Source: Candidatus Peribacteraceae bacterium
Lineage (GTDB): Bacteria > Patescibacteriota > Gracilibacteria > Peribacterales > Peribacteraceae
Assembly: GCA_028718905.1 (NCBI GenBank)
Contig: JAQUKV010000007.1
Location: forward strand, 588 to 64,587
Direction of reading: 5' to 3'
Length of the DNA stretch: 64,000 nt
Shown: positions 6,472 through 62,347 of the stretch, piece by piece
Numbering within the stretch: position 1 is the stretch's first letter
Layout of the letters: the number at the start of each line of letters is the position of its first letter
Translations under genes and position numbers: made by a program
Notes under the pieces: generated by a model
Database searches by the model: none
What the model saw: only the letters and a program-made list of their open reading frames with translations
Told to the model about the DNA's origin: nothing

Positions 6472-6696
6472 ATGTCCTCTGTCGCTCTGAAGAACTGCAT
6501 CCGCCGCCTCCGTTTCGAGAAGAACATGACGCAGGAGGAACTGGCGCTGCGTACGGGGGTGAGCCGGCAGACGATCATGTCGATCGAGCGCGGGCAGACG
6601 AATCCCTCGGTGCTCCTTGCTTATAAAATCGCAGCGGCGTTGAGCACACCCATTTCGAGCGTGTTCCAGATGGAGGGGGCGCTGGCACCGGTGTAA
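6472..6696 (+). CDS. XRE-family helix-turn-helix transcriptional regulator
   Basis: MSSVALKNCIRRLRFEKNMTQEELALRTGVSRQTIMSIERGQTNPSVLLAYKIAAAL is a typical HTH_3 sequence. Confidence 0.8.
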   Translation: MSSVALKNCIRRLRFEKNMTQEELALRTGVSRQTIMSIERGQTNPSVLLAYKIAAALSTPISSVFQMEGALAPV

Positions 6697-6848
6697 TTCA
6701 TGAGAGACAAACCTTCAGCCTTCGCCCTTCGGGCTACTGCCGACAGGGCGGTTTTTCTCTCATCCCTCAACTACCCGTCCGTGCCGGACAACGTCCGGGC
6801 GGGCGCTCGGGGTGACAGCGTAATACAACAAGAGTGTTGAGGTTATGG

Positions 6849-6934
6849 GTGACCCTGAGCGAAGCCGAACAGGTCACGAACTCTCTTTTCCCTTAAAGGT
6901 GTCGCTCTAGACGAGCGGAGCCCGTCTTCGCGAC
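6849..6934 (-). ncRNA. Structured-RNA-like element, copy D
   Basis: Read on the reverse strand: GTCGC-GAA-[GACGGGCTCCGCTCGTC]-TAGA-GCGAC-ACCTTTAAGGGAAAAG-AGAGTT-[GTGACCTG..CAGGGTCAC]. Same architecture as copies A, B and C. Confidence 0.6.
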
Positions 6935-12040: not shown

Positions 12041-12544
12041 ATGGCCGTTCGCATCGTTCCCTACTCCTCCGAAGATCGTGCAGAACTTGAACGTCTGATC
12101 ACCGAATTGCAAGGGTACATTGCGGAGATTGATCCTGAGAAACAGACGCGGCCCAAAGAGGAATTCAATGCGAAGCGGTATGTGGCGTTGTTGCTGGAAA
12201 AAGTAAAAGAAGGCCGCGGGTATGTGTTGTTGGCGGCAGACGGCGAAAAAAGAATCGGGTGCATTGCGGGGATTGTGCGCGCGCAACCATCTGAACAAGA
12301 TTTCATTGAAGGGTACCCGGTAAAGATCGGGGACATTCTGGAATTGGTTGTGGAGGAAAAGCATAGAGGAAAAAAGGTCGGAGAACTTTTGGTGGCAGAA
12401 TTGGAACAGATCTTTCAGAAGGCAGGATGCCAGATCATTCATGTGTCCTGCTTTGCTCCAAATATTCCCGCGCATCGATTTTATCTTCAGCAGGGATATT
12501 TCGATCGAAACATCGATCTATGGAAGAATGTGTTTGATCAGTGA
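12041..12544 (+). CDS. GNAT-family N-acetyltransferase
   Basis: 167 aa. The acetyl-CoA motif LVVEEKHRGKKVGELLVAELE is R/Q-x-x-G-x-G/A-like. Confidence 0.75.
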   Translation: MAVRIVPYSSEDRAELERLITELQGYIAEIDPEKQTRPKEEFNAKRYVALLLEKVKEGRGYVLLAADGEKRIGCIAGIVRAQPSEQDFIEGYPVKIGDILELVVEEKHRGKKVGELLVAELEQIFQKAGCQIIHVSCFAPNIPAHRFYLQQGYFDRNIDLWKNVFDQ

Positions 12545-12570
12545 TTGTCGCGGAGCGATATAAATAATTT

Positions 12571-12659
12571 GTGGCGAAGGCGGGCTTTGCCTGCCTGGAG
12601 CCACACCTTTTAGGGAAAAGGTGGATCGTGGAGGAAAAACCGCAGGTTTGTCCTCCACG
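12571..12659 (+). ncRNA. Structured-RNA-like element, copy A
   Basis: GTGGC-GAA-[GGCGGGCTTTGCCTGCC]-TGGA-GCCAC-ACCTTTTAGGGAAAAGG-TGGAT-[CGTGGAGGA AAAACCGCAGGTTTG TCCTCCACG]. Confidence 0.6.
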
Positions 12660-13217
12660 CTAAACATCCAGATTCTCAAACCCCTTTTCCTCGGATGTTG
12701 CTTCCGCCATCACCGGATTCAGCTCTTCGCCGACCGCCGGACCTTTCTTGCCCTTCGATCTCAGTACGACTTGCCGGTAGTCCCCCTCGCCGATCGATTC
12801 GGTCGTGAGATCCTGGAACTGCGGATTACTCGCAATGTGCAGATGCACGATGCGGCGGAAGTACGGACTCATGGGCGCCAGCGCCACGCGGGTCCCCGTC
12901 CGGCGCACGAAATCGGCCTTGTTCTCGGCCATCTTCTTTACCTTGTCCTCCTGCTCGCGGCGGTAGCCGTCGACATCGAGGACGAGGAACGGACTCTTCT
13001 CCAGATTCTCTTTGCTTCGCAGGATCGATTTCAGAAGGTGCTGAACGGAGTTCAGTGTTTCGCCGTGCCAGCCGATCAGGCGGCTTGCTGCCGAAGAGGT
13101 AATGTCCACGCGCGTAAATCCCTCTCCCTCCGTTTCGTTCACCGTGATCGTGTCGAACGGCAGATCGAGGAGCTTTAAGAGGTTGCCGAGGATGTCCTGA
13201 ATCAATGCAGCGTTCAT
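12660..13217 (-). CDS. jag: Jag/KhpB-type RNA-binding protein (KH + R3H domains)
   Basis: 185 aa. The R3H region is PMSPYFRRIVHLHIASNPQFQDLTTESIGEGDYRQVVL. Confidence 0.8.
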   Translation of the reverse strand: MNAALIQDILGNLLKLLDLPFDTITVNETEGEGFTRVDITSSAASRLIGWHGETLNSVQHLLKSILRSKENLEKSPFLVLDVDGYRREQEDKVKKMAENKADFVRRTGTRVALAPMSPYFRRIVHLHIASNPQFQDLTTESIGEGDYRQVVLRSKGKKGPAVGEELNPVMAEATSEEKGFENLDV

Positions 13218-22907: not shown

Positions 22908-23267
22908 CTTTCTGGGTTTCTTCTGCTGGAGGACCGGATTTTCCACCCTTTTCCGGCGAAAAGGGTGGAGCCCAAACGCCGGCGCGCCAATCCCCACTCC
23001 GCCCGGCCATGTGCCTCCTCACCGATGCCTCCAAGGATTCGGCATCGTCTCGTCGGCGCGTACCGCTCTTGAGCGGTGCAGGGCCTTCCCCTTCACCCCC
23101 GATGGCGCGCCCCCGCCCACAAAGTTGAGAATGCATTGAGGTATGCATCGCGAAGTTATTTGTGCCTCTGGTCATGGATCGAACACACATACAACTAACA
23201 AAACAGTCCGCCGTCGGTATGAAATAATCCGTGCCGAAGCGCTGGTTTCGCAAAATTAAAATAATCC

Positions 23268-23361
23268 ATCGCGAACCCCGCACGTGGCTATCGGGGTGGA
23301 GCGATACCTCTAAAGGGAAAGGATGGTTCATGGAAGGAAAACCGTAGGTTTGCCTTCCATG
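23268..23361 (+). ncRNA. Structured-RNA-like element, copy B
   Basis: ATCGC-GAA-[CCCCGCACGTGGCTATCGGGG]-TGGA-GCGAT-ACCTCTAAAGGGAAAGG-ATGGTT-[CATGGAAGG AAAACCGTAGGTTTG CCTTCCATG]. Confidence 0.6.
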
Positions 23362-23550
23362 CCGAACAGCCGTTGAGCAGGGACGCTATGCTCCTGGGTA
23401 ACCAGGTGGGTGGCCGCATCCTCCGACCACGGTCGGGGGAGAGTAGGCCTCCCCTAGAGCACTTGAGGAGAAACGTACCGGCTCTGACGTGCCGTCCAGA
23501 CGATGGGATTCTAGCGACGAGGATGGAGGATTGCCATGCAGCTCTTCATA

Positions 23551-23650
23551 GAGGAAAGAGAAGAAGGAAAAGAAGAAAAGGAAATAAAGGAGAATGGTCG
23601 TGACCTCCCTCTTTTCTTTCTTTCCTTTCCTCTATTTCCTTTCATTCTTC
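23551..23650. repeat. Purine-word / pyrimidine-word imperfect hairpin
   Basis: GAGGAAAGAGAAGAAGGAAAAGAAGAAAAGGAAATAAAGGAG followed by CTCCCTCTTTTCTTTCTTTCCTTTCCTCTATTTCCTTTC. It abuts the pgeF stop codon. Confidence 0.6.
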
Positions 23651-24336
23651 TATTTCTTTTCATTCCTGTTCAAGAGGACACATGCCAGCACATTCGTCCC
23701 TCCATTTCTCACCGCTTCCCGGTCGCCTCCCCTGTACGTCCAGTACTTTCCGGGGTTGCAGCACGTGCAGTCCGGCGAGCGTTCAAAATGATCCGGAGGA
23801 AGCCCGAGTTTCAACAGTTGCGCGTCCGCCGCGCCGCGCAGATCGACATTTTTTCCTGCAATGAACTCCGGCGGGATCGTCGGGAGCTCGCGCTCAGAAT
23901 CGCTGAATCCCGCGCACTTTTGGCAGAGCGACGGTCCGGCAGCTACATAAGTTTCTTCCGGATCGATATCCCATTCGTTTTTCAGTGCTGCGAAGAACGC
24001 GGGGATCGCTCCGGCATTCAGTCCGCGCCAGCCGGCATGCAGCGCGCCGAGAACATTTTTTTTGGGCGCGTAGAGAACGAATGCCTGACAGTCGGCCCAC
24101 CGCACCGAGAGCGCGAGACCGGTGTGATCCGTCACAAGTCCGTCAGCATCGGGTGCGTATTCCACGGCGCCGCGTGCGATGACAGTCTTCGCTCCATGTA
24201 CCTGTTCGGCGGATGCCGCACTCTTCACTCCGAGTGTCCCGCAGATATCGTGCGGCTGGTGATCCTTTTTCTTCCACATCCCCACGATCAGGCGGTCGCG
24301 AAACGGCTCGAAGAGGGAGAAGGGAGAACGGTTCAT
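23650..24336 (-). CDS. pgeF: Peptidoglycan editing factor PgeF (YfiH/DUF152, laccase-domain protein)
   Basis: 228 aa. WADCQAFVLYAPKKNVLGALHAGWRG and a C-terminal CTCCNPGKYWTYRG. Confidence 0.8.
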   Translation of the reverse strand: MNRSPFSLFEPFRDRLIVGMWKKKDHQPHDICGTLGVKSAASAEQVHGAKTVIARGAVEYAPDADGLVTDHTGLALSVRWADCQAFVLYAPKKNVLGALHAGWRGLNAGAIPAFFAALKNEWDIDPEETYVAAGPSLCQKCAGFSDSERELPTIPPEFIAGKNVDLRGAADAQLLKLGLPPDHFERSPDCTCCNPGKYWTYRGGDREAVRNGGTNVLACVLLNRNEKK

Positions 24337-48662: not shown

Positions 48663-50255
48663 ATGGCCGACAAGACCGCATCGTCGCTGCGCCTCTACAA
48701 CACGCTCACTAAGCGTGAGGAGGAGTTCGTGTCGATTGAAGAAGAGAAGAAGAAGACCCTTCGACCCGCCCCTCACGCACGTTCGGGACTCGCTCAGGGT
48801 AAAAACGGTTCCCGCGGAACCGTTTTCATGTACACCTGCGGTCCCACAGTCTACGGTCGGCCGCACATCGGCAACTATGCATCGTTCCTCATGGCAGACC
48901 TGCTGCGGCGCTGGTTGGAGGTGATGGGGTACGAAGTGATCCATGCCAAGAACATCACGGATGTCGGGCACCTTCTTCATGATGCCGAGCAGGGCGACGA
49001 CAAGATTGAGAAGCAGGCGAAGAAAGAGAAGCTCGATCCGCTCGAGATCGCCCGCAAGTACGAAGCACAATATCTTTCGGACGAGAAGGCGCTGAATATG
49101 CTCGAACCCTTTGCGCGGCCCCGCGCCACCGAGACAGTCAAAGAGATGCTCGAGATGGTCCGTGTTCTTCTCGACAAAGGTTTCGCGTACGAGATTTCGG
49201 ACGGCATCTACTTTTCGGTTGAGAAATTCCCGCAGTACGGAGCGCTTTCGGGCAATACGATTGAGAACCTGTGCGCCGGCATGCGCATCGAGGAGCGCGA
49301 GGGTAAGCACTGCAGCGCGGATTTCGCGCTCTGGAAGAAGTGTGTGGGTGAGAACGCGCCGCATCTTCTGCGGTGGAGCTTCAAAACGGGTGAGCGTGTC
49401 TTCACCGAAGGCGACGATGCATCGGCCGGATTCCCCGGCTGGCACATCGAGTGCTCCGCGATGAGCCGCAAGTTCCTGGCCGATCAAATTGATATCCACA
49501 CGGGCGGTGAGGACAACATCTTTCCGCACCACGAGTGTGAAATCGCCCAGAGTGAGGCCAGTAGTGGCCGAAAACCCTTCGTCCGCACGTGGGTGCACCG
49601 CCGCCGCATCAAGATGGGGGAAGAGAAAATGAGTAAGAGTCTTGGCAACGTGTTAAGTTTGCCTGACGTGATTGCAAAGGGTTTCAGCCCCTTGGACCTG
49701 CGGTACTACCTTCTCTCCGTCCACTACCGCACCAATTTGAAGTTCACCATGAAGGGACTGGAGGATGCAAAGAAGGCGCGGCGGAAGATTGTGGAGTGGA
49801 TGGAAGAAATTCATACTGCCCATCAGCAAACACTGGGCATGTCCAAGAGTGCGTTGCAAGAACACATTGCGCAGTTGCCAAAGGAAACGGTTGGGAATAG
49901 AGAGCAGATCAAAAAATGGACTCCTCTTTTTACAAAAATGATGAACGAAGATCTCAATACACCAGCTGCACTTTCTTGTGTCTTTAATGCGATGACAACA
50001 TCACGATTGGGCAAAGGAGATTTCTATGTGAAATCAGTACTTATAGATTTCGTGAAACTGGTTCGCCACACCTTTGGCTGTTTCGAACCAGAGGCACTGG
50101 ATGTTCCCGCCAAGGTCTTGCAGCTACTGAACAAGAGGAAAGAAGCACGTAAGGCAAAGGACTACCATTTGTCCGATCAACTGCGAGAAGAGATTCACAA
50201 AGAAGGATATGAGGTACGTGACAACGGTGATGAACAGGAATTAAAAAAGTTATAA
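48663..50255 (+). CDS. cysS: Cysteine--tRNA ligase, with N-terminal repeat-derived insertion
   Basis: LYNTLTKREEEF ... MYTCGPTVYGRPHIGN (HIGH motif) ... KMSKSLGN (KMSKS motif). About 28 extra residues sit between the first strand and the HIGH region. Confidence 0.9.
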   Translation: MADKTASSLRLYNTLTKREEEFVSIEEEKKKTLRPAPHARSGLAQGKNGSRGTVFMYTCGPTVYGRPHIGNYASFLMADLLRRWLEVMGYEVIHAKNITDVGHLLHDAEQGDDKIEKQAKKEKLDPLEIARKYEAQYLSDEKALNMLEPFARPRATETVKEMLEMVRVLLDKGFAYEISDGIYFSVEKFPQYGALSGNTIENLCAGMRIEEREGKHCSADFALWKKCVGENAPHLLRWSFKTGERVFTEGDDASAGFPGWHIECSAMSRKFLADQIDIHTGGEDNIFPHHECEIAQSEASSGRKPFVRTWVHRRRIKMGEEKMSKSLGNVLSLPDVIAKGFSPLDLRYYLLSVHYRTNLKFTMKGLEDAKKARRKIVEWMEEIHTAHQQTLGMSKSALQEHIAQLPKETVGNREQIKKWTPLFTKMMNEDLNTPAALSCVFNAMTTSRLGKGDFYVKSVLIDFVKLVRHTFGCFEPEALDVPAKVLQLLNKRKEARKAKDYHLSDQLREEIHKEGYEVRDNGDEQELKKL

Positions 50256-50265
50256 GAAACAATTT

Positions 50266-50363
50266 ATCGCGAAGCGCGGGTCTCGCGGGTTCCCGCGCTG
50301 GAGCGATTCCTCTAAAGGGAAAGGAGAGTCCATGAGGGGAAAACCGTAGGTTGTCCCCTCATG
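50266..50363 (+). ncRNA. Structured-RNA-like element, copy C
   Basis: ATCGC-GAA-[GCGCGGGTCTCGCGGGTTCCCGCGC]-TGGA-GCGAT-TCCTCTAAAGGGAAAGG-AGAGTC-[CATGAGGGG AAAACCGTAGGTTGT CCCCTCATG]. Confidence 0.6.
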
Positions 50364-51393
50364 CATAAAAGGCTATGAAGTGAAAGATACGGCGGAGGGA
50401 CAGAAGGTACGAAAACTATAGTTATTCTTTTTGATGCATCGGGAATCGTTGTCTCGTTGAGTGGAGAACTGATTGGTTTCCTCTGTCCTTTCTTTGCCAA
50501 GCGCGGCAAAGAAAGGACGAAAGAAAGCGCTGCGCCTATGAACCCCTCCGCTATCGCCGCCACATAGGCGCGTTTCCGGAAATTTTGTTGGCTGTTTTGT
50601 TTCCGCATCCGATTTTGTTTTTGTGGGCGTTCTTCTTCTTCACCTTTGTTCATTCAGCGCAGCCATTGAAAACAGGTACCTTCATTAAGGAAATTTAAAG
50701 GGAAATGTCAGGTCAATAAAACGTCGTGTTAAGGCGGCCGAACGGAAAAAGAGCTTTACCAACACATATTTCCTATACATCAAGGTGGTTTTTTACCCAC
50801 TTTCCGGAGTGAGTAAGCCTATTTTCTCTTCAATTCTCTTAAGAGAAATTGGCAATAAGTGCCTTTTGAGCCATCAATTCCGGAACGTTCCGGCAGAAAT
50901 GACCCTGTAACACTCCCTATTCCTCCCCGTTTGACCCAATGCACGGATCCGTGCGAGATCTTGCAGCTTCCTGCAGATTTCCATAGGATCTCCGCGATCC
51001 GCCTTCCTCGAGGAAAGGAAAGCGAGATCCGTGTATACGCCCTTTGACAAATCGGCGCCTTGCCTTTGTCCCGCGTATGCGGGACGAGACAAGCTTCACA
51101 CCTTGCTTTCCTTTTTATAGGGAAGGACAGGTCGTGTTCCTTCAGTGGCCGTCGAACCCTGGAAAGGATCTCCTTGGCCTCGTGACACCTCTTTATATAT
51201 AAGGAGAAGCCCCGCACTTTTGCGGGTTCATGTGGATGAATGTAAAAGCATCCGCAAGAGCGCGGGGCGTTCTCGCACACAAGAGCGCAGGGGGACAGGT
51301 AACGAGTCACTACCCACAATCACTTTCATACCATCATCGCATTTCCTCATTTCCTCATTTTTCGGTCTTTATTTCCTCTCTACTCCATACCTT

Positions 51394-54300
51394 ATGGATA
51401 TTTCCCGCTTTAAGAGAGCCTGTGCGGGTCTGTCCGTCGCAGCGATCATGCTGACCCAGGTCGGCACGGCGTTTGCAGCGTACAGCGATGTCCCGTCAGG
51501 CGTGTGGTACGGGGATGCCGTTTCGGCTTTTACCGATGCCGGCTACCTCGATGCTACGCAACCGCGCTTCCGTGGTGGTGACACTGCCACGCGTGCGGAA
51601 TTCACCAAGCTGATCGTCATGCTGAATGGCGGTCTGCTCTCCACTCCTCCGGCTGTGCCGAGCTTCAACGACGTGCCGACCGGCGCGTGGTTCTACGCTT
51701 ACATGGAAGAGGCAGCCAAGGAGGGCTGGGTGCGTGGTGACAATAACTGCTACGGCACCAAGCCGTGCAACGCTCGCCCGAACGCGAACATCAATCGCGC
51801 GGAGGCAGCTTCCCTCATCGTCCGTGCCTTCGGCCTGGACTCGACCGGCGCAGCTGCGCAATTCGTCGATAATCCTTCCGGCCAGTGGTACACAGAGGGC
51901 ATCCAGACTGCTGCGGATCACTGTGTCCTGCAGGGTGACGATTCCACGGGTCGTGTTCGCCCCTCTGACAACATGAACCGCGCGGAAATGGTGGTCATGC
52001 TCCACCGCGTCGACCAAGGTTTGACCTTCGGTGTCGACTGCGGCAAGGGCCAGGTCACTGTTCCGGCTGTCAAGTCCGTCATGGCCACGTCCGCGTTGAC
52101 CGTTGAAATCGAATTCACGGTTGCCATGGACAAGACCTCCGCCGAGAACAAGGCCAACTACACGATGTCCGGCTCCCCGACTGTACCGATCAATGCCGCC
52201 AAACTCATCGCCAAGGACACGGTCGAGCTCACGCTCGGCGAAGAGATGGTTGCCGATCATGAGTACACGATGCAGGTGAAGGACGTCGAATCCGAGGCCG
52301 GAGACACGGTCTCGGGCACCAAGACCTTCGCTGGCTATGCAGCCATCGTGAAGGGCGACGGTGAACTCGAGGTCTCTCTCTCGTCCAAGAACCCCCGCGG
52401 TGACACCCTGCCGAAGGGTGCCGTGGGTGTCGTCCTGCTCTCCGCCGACTTCACTGCGTCCTGCAAGGACACGGTGCAGGTGGAGAACCTCACCGTCCTC
52501 CATGAGGGTTTCGGTGAGTCCACCGATATTGATGGCGTGTACGCCGCCGTGAATGGCGCGCGCGTATCGCGCAAGCGGACGATCGATGCGCAGGATCAGA
52601 CCGCGGATCTGCGGTTTTCCTCCGCGCTCGTGATCGATCCGTGCGAGACCGTGACGGTCGACCTCGTCGCGGATTTCAGCTCCACGGCCGTTACGGCTTC
52701 GGAGCATGACTTCGTGGTCGAACTGCCGTCCGATGTCACCAGCAACGCTGCTGCCGTTACCGGGAATTTCCCGCTCCGCGGCGAGACCTTCAGAATAGCG
52801 GCTGTGACGAGCGGCATTCTGACCATCACGTACCGCTCGGTGAACCCGAGTCAGGTGCAGGTGGGTGACAAAGGCAAGGTGATCGGCAAGTTCGAAGTCG
52901 ACGCCGACTCCACCGAGGATCAGACGCTCTATTCGATGACCTTCGAGCAGAACAGTTCCGCTTCCGACGGCGACTTCGTGAATATCGCAGTCCGCCGCAC
53001 GGATGGAACGATCCTCACGAACACCGTTGCGCAGACAGTCGGTGATTTCATCACGATGGTCTTTGATCCTCCCTTCACGATTCTGGAGGGCGACAAGATC
53101 ACGCTCGAGATCGTCGCAGACATTCTGAATGGTGCAGATAAGTCCATTCAGATGCACTTCGAAGAGAGCTCCGATCTCTTCGCAGTCGGTTCTCTGTACG
53201 GCTACGGCGTGAACGGCCAGCTCTACGGTTCGCAGGTGAGCATCCCCACGGATAACGCCTCGACCGTCAGCATCGATGCAGGTGAATTCACCATCGGCAT
53301 CAATGGTCCGGCCACCACGCAGTACACGAGCGACAGCAATGATGCCGTACTCGCCAACGTCGAGTTCTCGACGGGCGGTGAGGATATCGACATCAAGAAC
53401 CTCTACATCCTCGTGCATGGTCAGACCTCCACGGGAGGCTACATGTGTGTCAATGGCGGATCGGCAGCCACTGCGGCAGCCTGCGATGCCTCGACGACAG
53501 ACACCGTAGCCATCAATTCCCAGATGGAAGGAGTGGAACTCCGCAACAAGACCACGGGCCGCACGGTCACAGGTGTGCGCCTGACGACCAGCGCCGGCAG
53601 TGGAGATGCTGCGGCTGCCAATCCGGGCGAATTCCAGATCTACCGCTTCGACGACTTCGTCGTGAAAGGCAAGCAGACCTGGCAGTTCCGCGTGGATTTC
53701 AGCTCTAACTCCGGTTCGCACCCGCGCAACGGAGACAAGTTCCGCATCTATATCTGCGGCGAGCCCACGCACGTGCTCGACACGAGCAACAACCTGACGA
53801 CGAACTCTTCCACGTGTTCGTTCGGCAGCGTGATCACGGGTGTGACGACCTACCAGATGGTTGTGGAAGGTCTCACGACCGGTGACAAAGTCGGAGATGT
53901 CCGCCCGCGCGGCGACATTGCCGGTAACGTCATGGAAGTGATCGACGCCACCCTCACGGTGGAGGTGAAGGCCCTCGCGACGTCGGAATCAGCCGTCGAA
54001 AATGCGAAGGATATCAACCTCTTCCGCTTCGAGGCCAAGGCCAGCTCCGCCGAAGACCTGCTCTTTACCAAGGCGGTCTTTGAGGCAGATTCCGGATCAC
54101 TCGTGAACGTGAACAACTACGCCCTCTGGGTGGACACGGATGGCGACCGCGTGGTCGACACGGTCCTCGAGAACGGTGTGGCGACCCAGTCGAGTCAGGT
54201 GACCTTCTCCGAGATGGCTGGAGGCGGCTATGTGCTCCCGAAGGAGCAGACGGTCGTCTTCGAAGTCCACGGTGATGTGGCCTCCTCGCTCACGGGGAAT

Positions 54301-55677
54301 GACCTTCAGCTCTCCTTCGATACTGGGTCCACGGTGACCTATGTCGAGGCCGAGAAACTTGCCGACGGCACCAGCCTCTCCGGCATCAAGACGAATGGTG
54401 TTTGCTCCACGACCTGTGACATCACGGTGACGACTGCCAAGTCCACCAACTACACGCTCCGGGCACAGGGAGACCTGTTCGTTTCGCTTGATTCCCAGAC
54501 AATCGGCGCACGCCAGCTCCTCGGTGGAACCCTTGGCGAGCCCGTCCTGCGCATCAAGATGCATGCCGAGTACGAAGATATCGACGTGACGGACCTTGTC
54601 CTGAACTCTTCAGGAAGCACGGCCGCGTCCGTTGACTCTCTCGAACTCTGGCTGGATGGCGCCACCCAGGCCACCGCGGTAAGCGGCGGCTGCGGCAGCG
54701 CTGATGTGCTGAACCGCATGACCTCCGGCTCCGCCAATACCGAGGCCTCCGGTTCCGGAACAACCGCCTTCTGCTTCACGATGGATAACAAGCAACTCGT
54801 GGTAGCGAAGGGTACGGATGTGAAGGTGACGGTCCGGCCCAGAATCAAGACCGACGTGAACGGTGCGACGAGCAACAACCTGTTCGCTCTCTTCATCGAT
54901 CACACGGCCGCGTCCAACGATTCCACCGGTACGGGATCCGTGCGCGCGCGCGGTGTTGCCTCGAGCAACAACCTGATCGCGAACAACGGAAACTCGACCG
55001 CGAATGGTGAGGTCTTCATCGGCCGCACCGCCGCCAACGCGGCCAATGCCCGCGTTGTCGGTAACGTCAACATGACAGTCCTCTCGAAGCTCGCTTCGAT
55101 CACGAACGGCGGAGCCGCCACGGGCACAGTCCCGAGCGGAGCTGACCGCGAGATCGGCGCCTTCACCCTCACTGCTGCCACAAACAGCAACTCGAAGGAT
55201 GGCGCGAACCAGTGGGTACTTTCGGGAGCGATCTTCACGGTGAACGCTACGAACGTGAACATGGCGACCACCGGATTCAAGATCTACAACAAGTCCGCTT
55301 CGATGTCGCAGAACGTTGCCTGCACGTCGGAGACGACGGCTGGTACCACGATTGTCGGAACAGCTTCCGGCGTCTTCTTGGTCGACTGTCGCGGCTTGGT
55401 GGGATCCGTCGTGAATACGGCGGTTGACTCCGGTCAGTCCATCACGCTCACGCTGCTCGCGAACGTGACGAACACGAACACGGCTGCTTCGAGCGGAGGC
55501 TCCAGCATCCTGCAAGTGTCTCTGAACGACTTTACGAACATCACGAAGTCGGTCTTCGGACAGGCCTCGGGTGAAAGCCGCCTCCAGTGGAGGGATACAG
55601 ACAACGCTGCGAACCAGAAGTTCCAGTGGGTTGAGTATCCTGACACAGCGGTCAACTCGACGACCTACCGTGGCTAA
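51394..55677 (+). CDS. Giant SLH-anchored surface (S-layer-type) protein
   Basis: The start is taken at MDISRFKRACAGLSVAAIMLTQVGTAFA (signal peptide). Three SLH modules are followed by ~1200 aa of Thr/Val/Gly/Ser-rich beta-type sequence. A strong terminator lies downstream. Confidence 0.85.
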   Translation: MDISRFKRACAGLSVAAIMLTQVGTAFAAYSDVPSGVWYGDAVSAFTDAGYLDATQPRFRGGDTATRAEFTKLIVMLNGGLLSTPPAVPSFNDVPTGAWFYAYMEEAAKEGWVRGDNNCYGTKPCNARPNANINRAEAASLIVRAFGLDSTGAAAQFVDNPSGQWYTEGIQTAADHCVLQGDDSTGRVRPSDNMNRAEMVVMLHRVDQGLTFGVDCGKGQVTVPAVKSVMATSALTVEIEFTVAMDKTSAENKANYTMSGSPTVPINAAKLIAKDTVELTLGEEMVADHEYTMQVKDVESEAGDTVSGTKTFAGYAAIVKGDGELEVSLSSKNPRGDTLPKGAVGVVLLSADFTASCKDTVQVENLTVLHEGFGESTDIDGVYAAVNGARVSRKRTIDAQDQTADLRFSSALVIDPCETVTVDLVADFSSTAVTASEHDFVVELPSDVTSNAAAVTGNFPLRGETFRIAAVTSGILTITYRSVNPSQVQVGDKGKVIGKFEVDADSTEDQTLYSMTFEQNSSASDGDFVNIAVRRTDGTILTNTVAQTVGDFITMVFDPPFTILEGDKITLEIVADILNGADKSIQMHFEESSDLFAVGSLYGYGVNGQLYGSQVSIPTDNASTVSIDAGEFTIGINGPATTQYTSDSNDAVLANVEFSTGGEDIDIKNLYILVHGQTSTGGYMCVNGGSAATAAACDASTTDTVAINSQMEGVELRNKTTGRTVTGVRLTTSAGSGDAAAANPGEFQIYRFDDFVVKGKQTWQFRVDFSSNSGSHPRNGDKFRIYICGEPTHVLDTSNNLTTNSSTCSFGSVITGVTTYQMVVEGLTTGDKVGDVRPRGDIAGNVMEVIDATLTVEVKALATSESAVENAKDINLFRFEAKASSAEDLLFTKAVFEADSGSLVNVNNYALWVDTDGDRVVDTVLENGVATQSSQVTFSEMAGGGYVLPKEQTVVFEVHGDVASSLTGNDLQLSFDTGSTVTYVEAEKLADGTSLSGIKTNGVCSTTCDITVTTAKSTNYTLRAQGDLFVSLDSQTIGARQLLGGTLGEPVLRIKMHAEYEDIDVTDLVLNSSGSTAASVDSLELWLDGATQATAVSGGCGSADVLNRMTSGSANTEASGSGTTAFCFTMDNKQLVVAKGTDVKVTVRPRIKTDVNGATSNNLFALFIDHTAASNDSTGTGSVRARGVASSNNLIANNGNSTANGEVFIGRTAANAANARVVGNVNMTVLSKLASITNGGAATGTVPSGADREIGAFTLTAATNSNSKDGANQWVLSGAIFTVNATNVNMATTGFKIYNKSASMSQNVACTSETTAGTTIVGTASGVFLVDCRGLVGSVVNTAVDSGQSITLTLLANVTNTNTAASSGGSSILQVSLNDFTNITKSVFGQASGESRLQWRDTDNAANQKFQWVEYPDTAVNSTTYRG

Positions 55678-58423: not shown

Positions 58424-61400
58424 ATGGCGAAGAAAGTTGCGAAAAAAGTTCACAAGAAACCCGCATCCAAATCCGCACCCCAGTCTTCGCCAAGGCTTCG
58501 GCCGGCAGGCAAGAAAGTGGCACATCGCACGGTGGCTCATGCCGTGAAGAAGGCGCCTTCTTCAGCCAAGAAACCTGTGGCGGCTGCCAAGAAACCTGTG
58601 GCGGTTTTGCCCGTAAAGAAGCCCGCACTGCCCCCCAAGCGCTCGTACCGCGTGCATGTGGAGGAGAAGATCCTGCCGCAGATTGAACCGCCGATTGTTC
58701 CTCCTGCCGGACGCGCATCCCTTGCCGTACGCAATCTTCCCGCGCACCTCACGCCCACACGCATTGCCGAAGGCCGCGTGTACCTGACTGAGGAGGAGAA
58801 TATTTCCGAGATTCTGCCGTCCCTGATCGAGATGCAGATCTTGAGCTACCGGTGGTTCCTCACCGAGGGCATCAAGGAGCTTCTGGAAGAGATCAGCCCG
58901 ATCACGGACTTCTCGGGTCGCAAGATGGAGCTGCGAATCCTCGGGCATACGTTCGATCCTTCCAAGTACGATCCCGAGACGTGCCGCCGCCGCAACCTGA
59001 CCTACGAAGCGGCCATGAAGGGCCATGTACAGCTCATCAACAAAGAAACCGGCGAAATCAAAGAGCAGGATGTGTTCCTCGGGTCGATTCCGCTCATGAC
59101 GAACACGGGTACGTTCATCGTCGGGGGGATCGAGCGCGTGGTGGTGCACCAGCTCGTCCGTTCGCCGGGCGTGTTCTTCAGTAAGATGCCCGATTATCCC
59201 AAATACCATGCCGCCAAGATCATCCCCAAACGGGGCGTGTGGCTGGAGATCGAAACGGATCGCCGCGGCATCATCACCTGTAAAATCGATCGCAAGCGCA
59301 AGATCCCCATCACGCAGCTTCTGCGCGTGTTCGGCTATGCGACGGATCAGAAAATCCTCGACCTCTTTGCTTCGGTGAAGGGCAAGGACGCCGACTACAT
59401 TCTCACCACGCTCGAGAAGGATTCCGTGCGCACCGTGGAGGAGGCCTACCAGAGCATCTATAGAAAGATCCGCCCGGGGGATCTGGCTACGCCCGAGAAC
59501 GCCAAACAGCTCATCGACTCGCTCTTCTTCGATTTCAAGAAATACGACATGGGCCAGATCGCCCGCTACAAGCTCAATCGTCGCTTCGGCTTCAAGACGG
59601 ACAATGACGAGTCGCACCGCGTGTTTCAGGTATCCGACTTCGTGGCGATTCTCAAAGAGCTCATCAATCTGAATAACGGGCTCGGGGTTCCCGACGACAT
59701 CGATCATCTCGCCAACCGCCGCATCCGTTCCGTGGGCGAGCTCGTCCAGAATAAATACCGCGTGGGTCTGGTGCGCACGGAGCGCATCATCAAAGACCGC
59801 ATGACCGTGCTCGATATGGAGACCGTTACGCCCACCCAGCTGATCAACTGCCGTCCGATCACCGCGGCCATGCGCGAATTTTTCGCAAGCTCGCAGCTTT
59901 CGCAGTTCATGGATCAGACGAACCCCCTCGCGGAGCTCTCGCACAAGCGTCGCCTCTCCGCCATGGGTCCGGGAGGACTCTCGCGCGAGCGCGCCAGTTT
60001 CGACGTGCGTGACGTGCATCCCAGCCATTACGGCCGCATCTGCCCGATTGCCACACCCGAAGGTCCGAACATCGGTCTGGTGGTGCATCTGGCGGCGCTG
60101 GCCCGCGTGAATCCCTACGGGTTCCTCGAAACGCCGTATCGTGAAGTGAAGAACGAAATTCCGTTGGACCCCGATAAACTCGTCGGTCGCATGATCGGCG
60201 ATACGATCCGCGAGGACCGCAAGGTCCTGCTCAAAGAGGGCGAGCTGGTTGCCACCAAGGAGATGGCCCGAAAAATCGTTTCCATCTGTCGTCAGGAGGG
60301 CAAATCCGCCGTGCCGGTGCGCCCCTACGTCACCAGCAAGTTCATCTATATTGACGCGGAACAGGAGCGTCACCTCACGATCGCGCAGGCACAGACCAAG
60401 TATTCGGAGCTCGGAGAGTTCCTGTCGACGACCATCTCCGCCCGCCGCAGCGGCGAACCGGTGCTTGTGGACGGACGCGATGTCACGCACGTGGATATGA
60501 CCCCCAAGCAGATTCTGTCGGAATCCACGTCGCTCATTCCGTTTCTGGAGCACGACGACAACACGCGTGCCTCGATGGGAACGAACATGCAACGTCAGGC
60601 TGTGCCGCTGATCTGTCCATCCGCCCCGCTCGTGGGTACGGGCATCGAAGGTCTGACGGCACGCGCCTCCGGTCAGGCGGTTCTGGCGGACGAAGACGGC
60701 GAGGTGGTGAGCGTCGACGCCGCGCACATCGCCGTGGTGTACCGTTCCGGCCGCAAACAGCAATTGTCCCTCACCACGTTCGTCCGCAGTAACCAGGGGA
60801 CATGCGTCCTCATGCGGCCGCGCGTGCACGTGGGTGAAAAAGTCCATCGCGGATCGGTGCTGGCGGACGGGTCGGCCGTCGAGAACGGGGAGCTCGCGCT
60901 GGGGCAGAACCTGCTCGTGGCGTACCTGTCGTGGGAGGGCGCGAACTTCGAAGACGCCGTCATCATCTCGAGCCGCGTTGTGCGCGACGGCTGGTTCGAC
61001 TCCATTCACATCGAGTCGTACGTGACGGATGTGCGCGACACGAAGCTCGGTTCCGAGACGGTCACGCGCGATATCCCGAACGTGGGCGAGGCCAAGCTCA
61101 AGGATCTCGATGCAGACGGCATCGTACGCATCGGCGCCACGGTGCATGAAGGTGACATTCTCGTGGGCAAAATCACACCCAAGGGCGAGACGGAGCTCAC
61201 ACCGGAAGAACGGCTTTTGCAGGCGATCTTCGGTGACAAGGCGAAAGACGTGAAGGATTCGTCGCTCCGGTTGCCGGGGGGCGCGGGCGGCAAGGTGGTG
61301 GATGTGCACATTTTCGACCGGGCCGAGGGTGACGAGTTGCCGACCGGTGTGATCAAGCAGATCAAAGTTTTCGTCGCGCAGACGCGCAAAGTGCAGGTCG

Positions 61401-62347
61401 GCGACAAGATGGCGGGCCGCCACGGAAACAAAGGCGTGGTCTCGCGCATCGTGCCGGCCGAGGATATGCCGTATCTGGAGGACGGCACGCCGGTGGATAT
61501 CATTTTAAATCCTCTCGGCGTCACTTCCCGTATGAACATCGGACAGATTCTCGAAACCCACTTGGGCTGGGCCTGTGAAAAGCTGGGGATCAAGGTTGCG
61601 ACTCCGGCCCTGAATGGAATTTCCGTCGATCAGATCGAGGAGTTCCTCAAGGCGGCCGGCCTGCCGACCGATGGCAAGGTGCAGCTCTTCGACGGGCGCA
61701 CCGGCGAGCCGTTTGCGCACAAGACCACCGTGGGCATCGTGTACATGCTCAAACTCCTCCACCTCGTGGAGGACAAGATCCATGCACGCAGCGTCGGACC
61801 GTACTCGCTCGTCACGCAGCAGCCGCTCGGCGGCAAGGCGCAGCACGGAGGCCAGCGTTTCGGAGAAATGGAAGTCTGGGCGCTGGAAGCCTACGGCGCG
61901 GCCTACACGCTGCAGGAGATGCTCACGATCAAGTCCGACGACGTGATCGGGCGCTCCAAGGCCTACGAGGCCATCGTGAAGGGTGAGCCCATCCGCCGCC
62001 CGTCGATCCCCGAATCCTTCAATGTTCTCGTGAAGGAACTGCAGGCACTGGGACTCAAAGTCGAGCTGCTCAAGTTCAAGGACGAGGTTGAGCCCGAGGA
62101 GCGGACGACTCTGGAAGCGGGCGAAGTGGAGCAGGTGGAACTGCGGTCGCGCGTTGAGGCGGAGGCCGAAGCCGAAGAAATCCTCAATGCCACAGAGAAG
62201 ATCTCGGAGCTGGATGCGCCGGGCAGCGAAACCGCCGAGGAGGTGGTGGGAGGCATCGAAGAGGGGGAACCGGTGGAGGCATCGGGAGTCACCGCCAAGG
62301 AAGAAATGAAAGAGGCAGTCAGCGAAGAGTCGATGGAGGACGCATAA
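58424..62347 (+). CDS. rpoB: DNA-directed RNA polymerase beta subunit with Lys/Ala/Pro-rich N-extension and acidic C-tail
   Basis: 1307 aa. The conserved core runs from LIEMQILSYRWFL through SFNVLVKELQALGLKVEL. No in-frame ATG lies between 58424 and the conserved N-terminus. Confidence 0.9.
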   Translation: MAKKVAKKVHKKPASKSAPQSSPRLRPAGKKVAHRTVAHAVKKAPSSAKKPVAAAKKPVAVLPVKKPALPPKRSYRVHVEEKILPQIEPPIVPPAGRASLAVRNLPAHLTPTRIAEGRVYLTEEENISEILPSLIEMQILSYRWFLTEGIKELLEEISPITDFSGRKMELRILGHTFDPSKYDPETCRRRNLTYEAAMKGHVQLINKETGEIKEQDVFLGSIPLMTNTGTFIVGGIERVVVHQLVRSPGVFFSKMPDYPKYHAAKIIPKRGVWLEIETDRRGIITCKIDRKRKIPITQLLRVFGYATDQKILDLFASVKGKDADYILTTLEKDSVRTVEEAYQSIYRKIRPGDLATPENAKQLIDSLFFDFKKYDMGQIARYKLNRRFGFKTDNDESHRVFQVSDFVAILKELINLNNGLGVPDDIDHLANRRIRSVGELVQNKYRVGLVRTERIIKDRMTVLDMETVTPTQLINCRPITAAMREFFASSQLSQFMDQTNPLAELSHKRRLSAMGPGGLSRERASFDVRDVHPSHYGRICPIATPEGPNIGLVVHLAALARVNPYGFLETPYREVKNEIPLDPDKLVGRMIGDTIREDRKVLLKEGELVATKEMARKIVSICRQEGKSAVPVRPYVTSKFIYIDAEQERHLTIAQAQTKYSELGEFLSTTISARRSGEPVLVDGRDVTHVDMTPKQILSESTSLIPFLEHDDNTRASMGTNMQRQAVPLICPSAPLVGTGIEGLTARASGQAVLADEDGEVVSVDAAHIAVVYRSGRKQQLSLTTFVRSNQGTCVLMRPRVHVGEKVHRGSVLADGSAVENGELALGQNLLVAYLSWEGANFEDAVIISSRVVRDGWFDSIHIESYVTDVRDTKLGSETVTRDIPNVGEAKLKDLDADGIVRIGATVHEGDILVGKITPKGETELTPEERLLQAIFGDKAKDVKDSSLRLPGGAGGKVVDVHIFDRAEGDELPTGVIKQIKVFVAQTRKVQVGDKMAGRHGNKGVVSRIVPAEDMPYLEDGTPVDIILNPLGVTSRMNIGQILETHLGWACEKLGIKVATPALNGISVDQIEEFLKAAGLPTDGKVQLFDGRTGEPFAHKTTVGIVYMLKLLHLVEDKIHARSVGPYSLVTQQPLGGKAQHGGQRFGEMEVWALEAYGAAYTLQEMLTIKSDDVIGRSKAYEAIVKGEPIRRPSIPESFNVLVKELQALGLKVELLKFKDEVEPEERTTLEAGEVEQVELRSRVEAEAEAEEILNATEKISELDAPGSETAEEVVGGIEEGEPVEASGVTAKEEMKEAVSEESMEDA
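58565..58606 (+). repeat. Tandem 21-nt repeat inside the rpoB 5' extension
   Basis: GCCAAGAAACCTGTGGCGGCT followed by GCCAAGAAACCTGTGGCGGTT, encoding AKKPVAA and AKKPVAV. Confidence 0.9.

Follow-up and report, generated by a model that had tools for sequence, protein, structure and literature searches.

Interspersed extragenic repeats able to form intrastrand triplexes have been described in E. coli and other bacteria as BoxC/PIT/TM(ECO) (Hoyne et al. 2000; Holder et al. 2015, PMC4666352). The element described here is likewise an extragenic repeat with three consecutive blocks on one strand that are able to form a purine-motif triplex. Its block order is that of class I in the BoxC/PIT scheme and neither repeat is tied to gene orientation or function. 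BoxC copies are near-identical whereas the triplex blocks of the element are variable and covary, and the two are probably dissimilar in sequence. The purine and pyrimidine blocks of the element are 15 nt apart, with a conserved upper stem-loop between them, compared to 1-6 nt in BoxC/PIT. Unlike BoxC/PIT the element includes an extra P1-GAA/UGGA-P2 hairpin domain and an A-rich box, and it is found only in the Peribacteria of the candidate phyla radiation (CPR).

REP sequences are short imperfect palindromes (20-40 nt) of simple form, have a GTAG-type head, are homogeneous in each genome and occur with RAYT transposases. Their documented roles include protection of mRNA 3' ends. The element resembles REP, BIME and REPIN sequences as a small structured extragenic repeat placed at gene 3' ends and in convergent gaps in either orientation. 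Compensatory changes are common to the element and REP/BIME, as is transcription into UTRs, which for the element is presumed. The element differs from REP in its two domains and third strand, no GTAG-type head was seen in it, and no stem sequence is common to the four copies analysed here. The ENE of PAN and MALAT1 belongs to the pyrimidine motif, with parallel U·A-U and C+·G-C triples and an A-rich 3' tail as the central strand. Both ENE and element would have an intramolecular major-groove triplex stacked on a hairpin at a transcript end and a proposed block to exonuclease decay, predicted in the case of the element. The third strand of the element is purine-rich, 5' of the hairpin and antiparallel, unlike that of the ENE. 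An antiparallel purine-rich third strand has no established natural RNA example (PMC7583470, PMC13541005).

Orphan Rfam-type motifs share with the element a lineage-restricted distribution, an intergenic location, conserved loops and covarying stems. The element is set apart by its many copies per genome, its lack of consistent gene association or orientation, its nested insertions and its truncated copies. MITEs and PATEs (IS200/IS605-derived) are also small, non-coding and multi-copy, and PATEs share subterminal hairpins on one strand and the absence of target-site duplications (TSDs) and terminal inverted repeats (TIRs). The element differs from both in having two dissimilar hairpins and stems that vary freely within one genome. 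Such free variation between copies is difficult to square with a single transposase recognising them all.

Copies in the window and the wider family

The window, the whole 64,000-nt stretch of DNA that was analysed, was searched with a covariance model built from 19 copies with filters off. Exactly four full copies were found, scoring 106, 86, 79, and 60 bits, and the next match scored 16 bits. The linker pattern CCTYTWAAGGGAAA, with up to two mismatches, matched eight times in the window compared to 0.76 expected and none of 100 shuffles reached eight. All four copies (A, B, C, and D) folded as the first-pass annotation stated (z-scores -6.6, -2.9, -3.7, and -1.8) with no stem sequence in common. 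That annotation gave the sequences of A (12571-12659, +), B (23268-23361, +), and C (50266-50363, +) correctly, and the P3 loop said to be common to three copies, AAAACCGYAGGTT, was exact in A, B, and C.

Copy B as a whole spans 23260-23361 on the + strand (78.6 bits) and is composed of an A-rich box, a P1-P2 hairpin, a connector, a third strand, and P3. It is antisense between two genes. The box AATAAT (23260-23265) lies 2 nt 5' of P1. The P1-P2 domain (23268-23305) includes P1 (23268-23272 with 23301-23305), an internal loop of GAA (23273-23275) and UGGA (23297-23300), and P2 (23276-23280 with 23292-23296). It is followed by the connector ACCUCUAA (23306-23313; N-CC-N-Y-U-N) and the third strand AGGGAAAGGAUGG (23314-23326), with mirror covariation at layers 0-8. 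In this strand GGAUGG mirrors GGAAGG in the 5' arm of P3, and the A run of the upper stem has its mirror in AAA. A 5-nt turn (UU + CAU) and P3 occupy 23327-23361. The lower stem of P3 pairs 23329-23337 with 23353-23361, the upper stem AAACC/GGUUU pairs 23339-23343 with 23347-23351, and the apical triloop GUA is at 23344-23346.

Copy A (12563-12659, +; 106 bits) has the box AATAAT at 12563-12568, P1 at 12571-12575/12600-12604, P2 at 12579-12585/12589-12595, the third strand at 12612-12624, and P3 at 12627-12635/12651-12659. It lies between a GNAT gene (+) ending at 12544 and jag/khpB (-) with its stop at 12660. Copy C (50258-50363, +; 86 bits) has the box AACAAT at 50258-50263, P1 at 50266-50270/50303-50307, a long P2 at 50274-50298, the third strand at 50316-50328, and P3 at 50331-50339/50355-50363. 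The stop of cysS is at 50255 and P1 begins 10 nt downstream.

For copy D on the minus strand the 5' half, read from 6934 downwards, was as quoted in the first-pass annotation but the 3' half was misassigned. The supposed P3, GTGACC/GGTCAC, is the stem of another small repeat inserted between the linker and P3. This second repeat and about 115 nt of DNA separate the third strand from the true P3, which runs from 6763 to 6699 and has a second insert of 35 nt (6749-6715) in its apical loop. Based on the sequence and covariance model sub-hits at 6700-6763, the true extent of D is 6934-6699. It includes the P1-P2 domain at 6934-6901, the connector and third strand at 6900-6881, and inserted DNA at 6877-6764. 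The P3 end is 2 nt from an XRE-type HTH gene (+) with its stop at 6694-6696.

Pattern scanning and the covariance model gave approximately 150 further copies, all confined to Candidatus Peribacteria/Peregrinibacteria genomes or metagenomes. Copy density between genomes ranged from about 1 per Mb up to 1 per 16 kb. Six genome-scan matches outside the Peribacteria (L007, L025, L039, L043, L048, and L049) were rejected as chance, and the covariance model recovered none of them. A covariance model search had been proposed as a check in the first-pass annotation. The claim made there of a true multi-copy family, in which the helices are compensated and certain unpaired bases conserved, is supported. 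The element had also been proposed to belong to no known family and it had no match in Rfam 15 at either the gathering threshold or an E-value threshold. The whole window gave two tRNAs only at the gathering threshold. Copy B gave only weak opposite-strand matches at E values up to 10. Eighteen further loci matched rRNA genes, tRNAs, and a group I intron only, with no family matched by the elements. Two copies fell inside 23S rRNA matches, in intron insertions. No account of such an element was found in the literature on structured RNAs or repeats of Peregrinibacteria/Peribacteria, and none is described in the keyword-matched passages of the Ca. Peribacter riflensis genome paper. The element is an undescribed, Peribacteria-specific interspersed repeat of approximately 95 nt, longer where its hairpin loops bear inserts.

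Paired stems and a covarying third strand

The covariation claimed for P1, P2, and P3 was strong and far above shuffled and slid controls. In the first set 96.0% of cells were paired and 16 of 26 pairs had changed on both sides, with none of 500 shuffles as high and 30-45% pairing in slid controls. In an independent metagenome set 96.5% of cells were paired and 24 of 26 pairs had changed on both sides. In P2 and P3 there were 45 G·U wobbles compared to 7 A·C, so the annotated strand is the folding strand. Orthologous loci of different species keep the fold with different stems, as in A and L021 and the four nrdR copies. Insertions were restricted to three loops, namely the P2 apex, the P3 apex, and the turn.

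P1 is 5 bp in length. The loop described as an invariant GAA/TGGA held up well, with GAA in 131/133 copies and UGGA in 117 of approximately 125. Tandem sheared G·A pairs could form in it, along with an A-U pair and a single bulged G. A kink-turn did not fit, as GAA/UGGA bulges at most one nt though tandem G·A next to P1 is possible. By-eye comparison with kink-turn, loop E, hammerhead, and hairpin ribozyme cores gave no fit. In the connector CC and U are conserved and the other positions are variable. The 5' arm of P3 is all purine and its top is the conserved AAACC-GNA-GGUUU. The apices are C-GNA-G triloops in approximately 77% of P3 hairpins and C-UNN-G triloops in P2, with C(UUCG)G at the P2 apex of L058/L062. 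C-GNA-G and C-UNN-G triloops are textbook DNA structures, typical of stable DNA mini-hairpins rather than RNA.

The linker had been read as a near-invariant unpaired junction. This does not stand: the linker covaries with P3 as a third strand. Its sequence, AGGGAAA(A)RRWRRG, mirrors the purine 5' arm of P3 through nine layers, in which G faces G and each A of the arm faces A or U. When linkers were swapped among 52 unique copies at a fixed register, 4.09±0.13 of 6 layers obeyed the mirror rule compared to 5.73 for the true linkers (0/5000 permutations as high). Other registers gave 1.3-3.3 and the direct-repeat alternative at most 3.5. All of layers 0-8 complied, four of them alternating between G·G and either A·A or U·A. 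Mutual information with APC correction, which makes no prior assumption, recovered the same column pairs. On 52 new distinct copies the values were 5.71 compared to 4.34±0.13. Since the third strand shifts with the duplex at four layers and this was replicated, the triplex is under selection and not a coincidence. At layers where P3 has G·U the third strand is G in 24/24 and 24/25 cases, therefore it reads the purine arm.

After the 5-nt turn the third strand is antiparallel to the purine arm. The covariation points firmly to the third strand and P3 forming an intramolecular antiparallel purine-motif triple helix of at least nine layers (G·G-C, A·A-U, U·A-U). An intrastrand purine-motif triplex calls for at least 6-7 triplets in the order reverse-Hoogsteen, purine, pyrimidine, and the element has nine layers in this order. 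Its block loops are a turn of 5 nt and the 15 nt (5-bp stem plus triloop) joining the arms, compared to 1-6 or 0-10 nt in the PIT/BoxC definitions. Purine-motif triplexes have been reported not to form in RNA or with RNA strands (PMC4666352, PMC7583470), so reading the element as RNA needs something unprecedented.

Two other pairings were tried and rejected. A switch in which the linker pairs with the 3' arm of P3 would make the linker a direct repeat (at most 3.5/6 compared to 5.7/6 for the mirror), and only the mirror rule fits the copies with asymmetric arms (L002b, L011, and L035). Were the triplex instead of the RNA-compatible pyrimidine motif and formed by the opposite strand, 35 U·A layers would become A·A-U and 45 G·U pairs would become A·C. 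The third strand also tracks the 5' arm and not the 3' arm at G·U layers, which argues against the opposite-strand triplex.

Genomic setting and flanking signals

Copies were located at gene 3' ends, in tRNA spacers, directly 5' of nrdR or tRNAs, and in a 23S group I intron. In the two sets 22 and 18 copies were in convergent regions, 35 and 35 in tandem regions, and 3 and 5 in divergent regions. In roughly half of cases a gap of 0-3 nt separated P3 from the end of a convergent gene. Downstream neighbours were on the opposite strand in 65-72%, and the 3' end of an opposite-strand gene was within a few nt of P3 in 33/47 and 31/40 such cases. In tandem regions 14 and 16 copies were sense to the genes and 21 and 19 antisense. 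In many copies a same-strand gene has its stop codon 2-30 nt before the start of P1. In four species 4-5 nt lie between the end of P3 and the nrdR AUG, and P3 ends 1-8 nt ahead of same-strand tRNAs. Two species have sense copies in a group I intron at a single 23S site. L019/L060 and L018 (-) are antisense between co-oriented tRNA genes. Orthologous sites were kept with fold and third-strand match intact at nrdR (four species), jag (two), and a tRNA spacer (two). Only nrdR in four species and a few tRNAs were found directly downstream of a copy, where a riboswitch or 5' cis-regulator would have its gene. In its genomic ecology the element is closer to interspersed repeats of the REP/BoxC type than to a riboswitch or classical sRNA gene. 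A replication-oriented element was also considered and rejected, as no correlation with skew was found (31 co-oriented compared to 41 anti-oriented by local GC skew).

The AT-rich block reported upstream of A, B, and C is present in all three but does not behave like a -10 promoter element. It is an A-rich box, AAWAAW, at -8 to -3 from P1 in most of 72 copies and is absent from D. Among the 72 copies there was no conserved T at the box ends, no -35, and no information at -30 to -35. P1 begins just 2-3 nt after the box, and copies within the 23S intron have the box as well. A promoter in the box was rejected as it lacked sigma-70 features, and no + strand promoter-like site was found near B. 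There was no terminator-like site at B and no U-tract after P3, where positions +1 to +5 are mixed A/U/C (M-W-W-W-A). Canonical bidirectional terminators lie downstream of L034, L015b, and L040, thus the element is not simply the terminator. It is not an efficient forward terminator either, since sense copies directly precede tRNAs or nrdR and lie in 23S. A leader peptide or translation start was considered because of ATG/GTG at the base of P3 behind the Shine-Dalgarno-like AGGGAAAGG, and was rejected. The mini-ORFs vary in frame and length (MEGKP-stop, MRGKP-stop, and an 11-aa ORF), and the supposed start is elsewhere GCG, UUG, GCA, or CCA, covarying with its partner (covarying pair CRYG).

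Proposed function and alternatives

The best guess, held at a probability of about 0.4, is that the element is a REP-like RNA module making nuclease-resistant transcript ends. The anatomy is far better supported than the mechanism. The element would be transcribed with any transcript crossing it, including mRNA 3' UTRs, tRNA spacers, nrdR or tRNA leaders, and the 23S intron. At the nrdR and tRNA leaders, 3' UTRs, and 23S intron the transcribed strand is probably the annotated one. The element would then fold autonomously, with the triplex-clamped P3 acting as a hard 3' boundary. P3 and the P1-P2 hairpin behind an A-rich single-stranded box may together form a compact obstacle to exonucleases and helicases, one that could define and stabilise transcript ends at gene boundaries. 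The GAA/UGGA loop would be a likely protein-binding site. The family probably spread as a repeat and was then retained, or at the least not removed, at gene 3' ends. Insertions limited to loops and orthologous folds are the behaviour of a stable folded molecule and favour the RNA module. Against it are the lack of a conserved promoter and of a U-tract after P3, and the antisense loci (L019/L060, L018, and B) that keep the fold where the opposite strand is obviously transcribed. The varying density and the truncated and mosaic copies also count against it, as they fit a selfish repeat with a fold serving its own spread. If the folded molecule is RNA, a tentative assignment, it would be the first natural RNA with a long (nine or more layers) antiparallel purine-motif triplex.

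A role as single-stranded DNA is a serious rival, though on balance somewhat unlikely. The single-stranded or extruded annotated strand would form the hairpins and a class I intrastrand purine-motif triplex, as in the BoxC/PIT (TM) repeats of E. coli, acting through polymerase pausing, REP/BIME-like supercoil or protein binding, or recombination or genome instability. Antiparallel G·G-C, A·A-T, and T·A-T are exactly the DNA purine motif, the order of reverse-Hoogsteen, purine, and pyrimidine blocks is class I of Holder et al. (PMC4666352), and the motif cannot form in RNA according to the same source. The dominance of C-GNA-G and C-TNN-G triloops, the independence of orientation from flanking genes in tandem regions, and the antisense copies in tRNA operons also favour DNA. 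A strand-specific fold requires a single-strand source, however, and orientation is unlinked to replication. Extrusion as a cruciform or H-DNA would constrain both strands, yet G·T far exceeds A·C. The turn and loops tolerate inserts of 35-115 nt, something a stable RNA can accommodate more readily than DNA that folds transiently. Convergent enrichment and divergent depletion are the opposite of negative-supercoil accumulation, and the invariant GAA/UGGA loop and the single C(UUCG)G apex (L058/L062) look RNA-like. A selfish, non-autonomous mobile repeat that does nothing for its host is an improbable reading; its fold would be needed only for mobilisation through an ssDNA or RNA intermediate, and its copies would persist where harmless. 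Gene 3' ends, tRNA spacers, and intron periphery would be safe havens for such a repeat, copies are nearly absent from divergent promoter regions, and copy number is strongly lineage-dependent. The truncated copy by B, the duplication in L009, the mosaic L024/L052, the second repeat nested in either orientation, and uncompensated changes such as those in L015 are of the same kind. No transposase is known or was seen, TSDs and TIRs are absent, and the completely different stems within a genome mark the copies as old. Retention of orthologous positions across species with fold and third-strand match intact, in streamlined host genomes of approximately 1.1-1.25 Mb, also speaks against a purely selfish repeat.

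Three further explanations carry lower probabilities. Independently transcribed trans-acting sRNAs with their own promoters, for example a scaffold or sponge for a protein binding the GAA/UGGA loop, are quite improbable. Orientation independent of neighbours, a 3' side abutting the neighbour with a 5' side usually keeping at least 10-60 nt, and good -10-like hexamers at the box in some copies (TGTTACAAT in L061, TATAAT in L003) would suit them. The box has no conserved T and no conserved -35, is too near P1 (2-3 nt) for a normal start site, and is retained by intron copies with no need of a promoter. L060 and L018 are just 17 nt from a tRNA or another copy, and P3 has no terminator after it though bidirectional terminators follow L034, L015b, and L040. 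A self-cleaving ribozyme or RNase-processing signal cutting at the borders and freeing tRNAs or a leaderless nrdR mRNA is very unlikely, despite the small size, multiple copies, and invariant junction nucleotides. The closeness of P3 to tRNA 5' ends (1-8 nt) and to the nrdR AUG (4-5 nt, with no other Shine-Dalgarno there) would fit processing, as would the A-rich leader with a pyrimidine at -1 before P1 and N-CC after. There is no likeness to any Rfam ribozyme class, the triplex explains most conserved nucleotides, and most copies have nothing downstream to release. The P1+P2 stack, N-CC tail, and A-rich leader are suggestive of a tRNA-like minihelix or RNase P substrate, a minor rival. The chances are slimmest for a cis-regulatory device, either a riboswitch or translational switch or an intrinsic or unidirectional terminator. 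Its third strand is Shine-Dalgarno-like (AAGGAG) and, with P3 skipped, would fall 6-9 nt from the AUG in the nrdR copies, and there is an enrichment of copies in convergent gaps. The majority of copies precede no gene, the supposed start codon at the P3 base is a covarying pair, and the mini-ORFs are not conserved. The missing U-tract and the sense copies before tRNAs and nrdR and in 23S argue against a terminator, and a reverse-complement terminator for the opposite gene would turn 45 G·U pairs into A·C mismatches.

RNA or DNA alike, this is to our knowledge the first purine-motif triple helix backed by natural covariation. If it is RNA, the accepted exclusion of RNA from the purine motif would be contradicted by covariation in more than 100 distinct copies, and a new tertiary building block would be gained. 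The RNA module would then be a new end-cap or protein-binding module, one that streamlined CPR genomes have in abundance. As DNA, the element would give the first evidence of structural constraint for the long-debated BoxC/PIT intrastrand triplex repeats. Occurring up to once per 16 kb and at the same gene borders across species, the element points to unknown transcript or genome-boundary biology in the CPR. It is small and modular and therefore directly testable in vitro.

The flanks of the copies gave no sign of TSDs or TIRs above permutation controls, a check that had been proposed from the outset. The longest shared words, direct or inverted, averaged 3.77 compared to 3.71±0.11 and 3.54 compared to 3.53±0.11. 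A MITE was ruled out on the absence of both. The relevant passages of the Peribacteria genome paper note no mobile DNA. Stem sequences of copies within a genome are wholly different, so the copies are old. The insertion in D (6764-6877, -) opens with the second repeat family, a hairpin GTGACC/GGTCAC with a loop containing TTCGGCTTCGCTCAGG, and this small repeat nests inside element copies in either orientation. L024 and L052 have P2 and a nested insert in common but differ in P1. The 5' part of L009 is duplicated and L015 has uncompensated changes. A truncated older copy, read from the sequence, lies just 5' of B (23222-23251, +) as AAATAATCC-GTGCC-GAA-GCGCTGG and comprises the box, the 5' arm of P1, GAA, and the start of P2. 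A possible collapsed remnant 5' of A (12547-12559, +) reads GTCGC-GGA-GCGAT, which would be the two arms of P1 after loss of everything between them. The copy in L064 has this motif 5' of it as well.

An element family of the Peribacteria

The four loci singled out in the first-pass annotation were recovered in the window sequence as copies A (12563-12659, plus strand), B (23260-23361, plus), C (50258-50363, plus) and D (6699-6934, minus). Each contained the P1-P2 and P3 fold, with z-scores from -6.6 to -1.8. The linker pattern recurred in the window, with 8 matches at ≤2 mismatches against 0.76 expected, and the P3 loop motif was identical in A, B and C. At gathering thresholds Rfam 15 returned only two tRNAs in the window, and around copy B it gave no relevant match up to E = 10, in agreement with the proposal of a novel family.

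One genome per species was scanned with the pattern GCGAA-N12-40-KRGAGC-NNN-WCCTYT-N1-3-AGGGAAA. Of the 64 loci obtained, 58 came from MAGs of Candidatus Peribacteria, Peribacteraceae or Peregrinibacteria; the other six had no match to the covariance model and were rejected. The covariance model R1 was built from a gap-free alignment of 19 copies. Run with filters off, R1 found exactly the four copies A-D in the window. Together, the window and the fetched loci (numbered with the prefix L; set 1) held 72 full-length copies, 11 of which lay outside the scan pattern. The same pattern matched 101 metagenome stretches, and among the 80 stretches listed R1 found 80 copies (set 2), several on one contig of 1,248,112 bp. 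Strict-pattern copy number ranged from 1 on a 1.07-Mb contig to 4 in the 64-kb window. Identity between the window and the fetched loci was at best about 84-90%, its organism being different but related. The family was confined to one lineage, Peribacteria. Literature searches on structured RNAs or repeats of Peribacteria and Peregrinibacteria gave no description of the element, and the passages on repeats, introns or insertions matched by keyword in the Ca. Peribacter riflensis genome paper (PMC4736985) do not mention it.

In the 19-copy alignment 96.0% of cells were paired and 16 of 26 pairs had changed on both sides. No shuffle matched these values, and slid partners were 30-45% paired. The metagenome set gave 96.5% and 24 of 26 in an alignment fitted to the model. 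The internal loop was nearly invariant (GAA in 131/133, UGGA in 117 of about 125). P2 and P3 contained 45 G·U against 7 A·C, so the annotated strand is the strand selected to fold. Target-site duplications and terminal inverted repeats, named earlier as part of a possible refutation, were absent from the copy flanks, and covariation exceeded that of the shuffles. The claim of a novel structured family with compensated helices survives, with a corrected anatomy, as a real and not ordinary finding.

The linker as a putative third strand

Compensation was upheld for P1, P2 and P3, but the linker, previously read as an unpaired conserved junction, had to be reinterpreted. The 6-8 nt 5' of P3 covaried with P3 as the mirror image of its 5' arm, being neither its complement nor a direct repeat. 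Examples are GGAUGG-uucau-GGAAGG in copy B, GGUGG-aucgu-GGAGG in copy A, AGGGUUUU...AAAAGGGA in L002b and GAAGGG...GGGAAG in L011. Under the mirror rule G faces G, and A or U faces A, across a fixed 5-nt turn with six layers scored. The rule was obeyed in 5.73/6 layers, compared to 4.09±0.13 with linkers permuted (52 unique copies; 0/5000). Other registers scored 1.3-3.3/6, and a direct repeat of the P3 arm at most 3.5/6. A further 52 distinct copies replicated the result independently (5.71 vs 4.34±0.13).

Compliance extended over nine consecutive layers, and at four of them G*G is exchanged for A*A or U*A. Within AGGGAAA, the conserved AAA sits over the conserved A-U pairs of the upper stem AAACC/GGUUU. 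A mutual-information scan without prior assumption returned the same third-strand/P3 column pairs; at three of the four variable layers the third strand was coupled more strongly with the 5' arm, whereas the fourth showed about equal coupling with either arm. At layers with a G·U pair in P3, the third-strand base was G in 24/24 cases in set 1 and in 24/25 of the new copies. As judged from this triple-helix covariation, the linker is a putative third strand on P3, and this covarying strand hidden in the linker is the most interesting feature of the element.

Triplets G*G-C, A*A-U(T) and U(T)*A-U(T) with an antiparallel third strand form the purine (R) motif. The block order of the element, third strand, purine, pyrimidine, is identical to that of the 'class I intrastrand triplex' of Holder et al. 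(PMC4666352). A pyrimidine-motif triplex on the opposite strand fitted worse: it would put A*A-U at 35 layers, turn G·U into A·C and set the third strand against mismatches.

Gene ends, introns and nested repeats

Neighbours were called with a codon-usage gene caller and ARAGORN, with a Pfam check in the window, and the analysis was repeated on set 2. Copies lay in convergent regions (22 in set 1, 18 in set 2), tandem regions in sense (14, 16) or antisense (21, 19), and divergent regions (3, 5). The downstream neighbour was on the opposite strand in 47/65 and 40/62 cases, and in 33/47 and 31/40 of such cases the last P3 pair lay within a few nt of the neighbour's stop codon or, for a tRNA, of its 3' end. 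Copy A is flanked by the stop codons of GNAT and jag. Copy D follows recJ, with its end 2 nt away from an XRE stop codon, copy C starts 10 nt past the cysS stop, and copy B sits antisense in the gap that separates a pgeF-like gene from an HD dGTPase gene. Orientation bore no relation to local GC skew (31 vs 41). The AT-rich block noted earlier upstream of the copies proved to be an A-rich box at -8 to -3 with no -35-like signal upstream; downstream of P3 there was a weak A/U preference alone.

Sense copies of L006, L011 and L018 end 1-8 nt 5' of tRNAs, and copies of L019, L060 and L018 (minus strand) are antisense between tandem tRNAs. At L018:7289-7659 two head-to-head copies 17 nt apart exactly fill the spacer of two co-oriented tRNA genes, with 5 nt between the first tRNA and the reverse copy and 8 nt between the forward copy and the second tRNA. 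In four species sense copies end 4-5 nt ahead of the nrdR AUG. These nrdR genes (L003, L042, L061, L063) start 4-5 nt after P3 and have no Shine-Dalgarno sequence of their own, the sole Shine-Dalgarno-like sequence being the third strand, beyond the P3 hairpin. The arrangement might represent a split ribosome-binding site or a start of the leaderless type.

In two species a group I intron at the 23S rRNA site GTCGGGU|AAGUUCC, presumably around E. coli position 1951 in our own numbering, carries a sense copy close to its 3' end; the L036 copy ends 8 nt 5' of the 3' splice site. The Peribacteria 23S rRNA genes concerned carry large insertions (L022:1759-5539, L036:3306-7998). Rfam Intron_gpI did not detect the intron at ~1951, which ends in G and follows an exon ending in U. 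A further insertion of ~1.1 kb in L036, a few nt upstream (~1926-1932), contains an Rfam group I intron match. The intronic element of L022 has a direct repeat of ~118 nt on its flanks, which may reflect a duplication or an error of assembly.

Inserts were confined to the P2 apex, P3 apex and turn (D, L020, L024, L027, L052, L057). Copy B is preceded by a truncated copy, and L024 and L052 differ in P1 but have P2 and a nested insert in common. At orthologous loci (A/L021, C/L015, four nrdR copies) the element is retained, and its stems and third strands differ between copies yet match one another; the L015 copy has uncompensated changes. Hairpins of a second small repeat family, with variable stems of 5-8 bp and a conserved loop (CC)YTTCGRCTNCGCTCAGG, occur alone, as inverted pairs and nested either way in main-element loops. 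They were found at 6854-6877 (minus strand) in the window and at L004:6277, L014:7657, L027:1078, L038:6186, L047:195, L050:2125, L055:2874 and L058:4618.

Nature of the element and other window features

The fold and its strand, the triple-helix covariation, the restriction to one lineage and the location at gene ends are established; the chemistry of the folded molecule (RNA or DNA) and its function we infer. The reading ranked first is a REP-like RNA end or boundary module (probability about 0.4). A DNA-level PIT/BoxC-like element, ranked second, is rather unlikely. In favour of DNA, the motif is the classical DNA triplex motif and is reported to be excluded from RNA (PMC4666352, PMC7583470), both hairpins have triloop apices of a type typical of DNA mini-hairpins, and some copies are antisense to the sole obvious transcription. 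In favour of RNA are the transcription of the annotated strand at many loci, as judged from position, the tolerance of long loop inserts, the invariant internal loop and the lack of replication bias; strand asymmetry also disfavours cruciform-type DNA structures. A purely selfish repeat, ranked third, is improbable, and an independent sRNA, a ribozyme or processing signal, or a switch or terminator ranks lower still. Efficient forward termination by the element is excluded, since the tRNAs, nrdR and the 3' part of 23S rRNA need read-through.

P3 of copy B meets the 3' end of a sub-threshold 6S/SsrS RNA match on the other strand (23355-23504, minus; full model, 32.4 bits, E = 5e-5; gathering score 46.4). 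The match sits in the 650-nt gap from the pgeF-like gene to the HD dGTPase gene, a region ~90% identical in metagenome locus L121, and is probably a divergent CPR 6S RNA. Adjoining the pgeF-like stop codon, a long imperfect low-complexity hairpin at 23540-23666 pairs a purine-rich arm (GAAAGGAAAUAGAGGAAAGGAAAGAAAG...) with a pyrimidine-rich arm. It gave many spurious miRNA-precursor matches in Rfam and may be another R·Y structure-forming tract. A 113-aa ORF (50312-50653, minus) reads across P3 of copy C, with its stop codon in the connector of that copy; the ORF had no Pfam match and may be a small membrane protein or a chance ORF. Two very large ORFs were present, 51145-55677 (plus, 1510 aa), which carries an S-layer homology domain, and 58424-62347 (plus, 1307 aa). 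Both are like the giant extracellular proteins reported for Ca. Peribacter riflensis.
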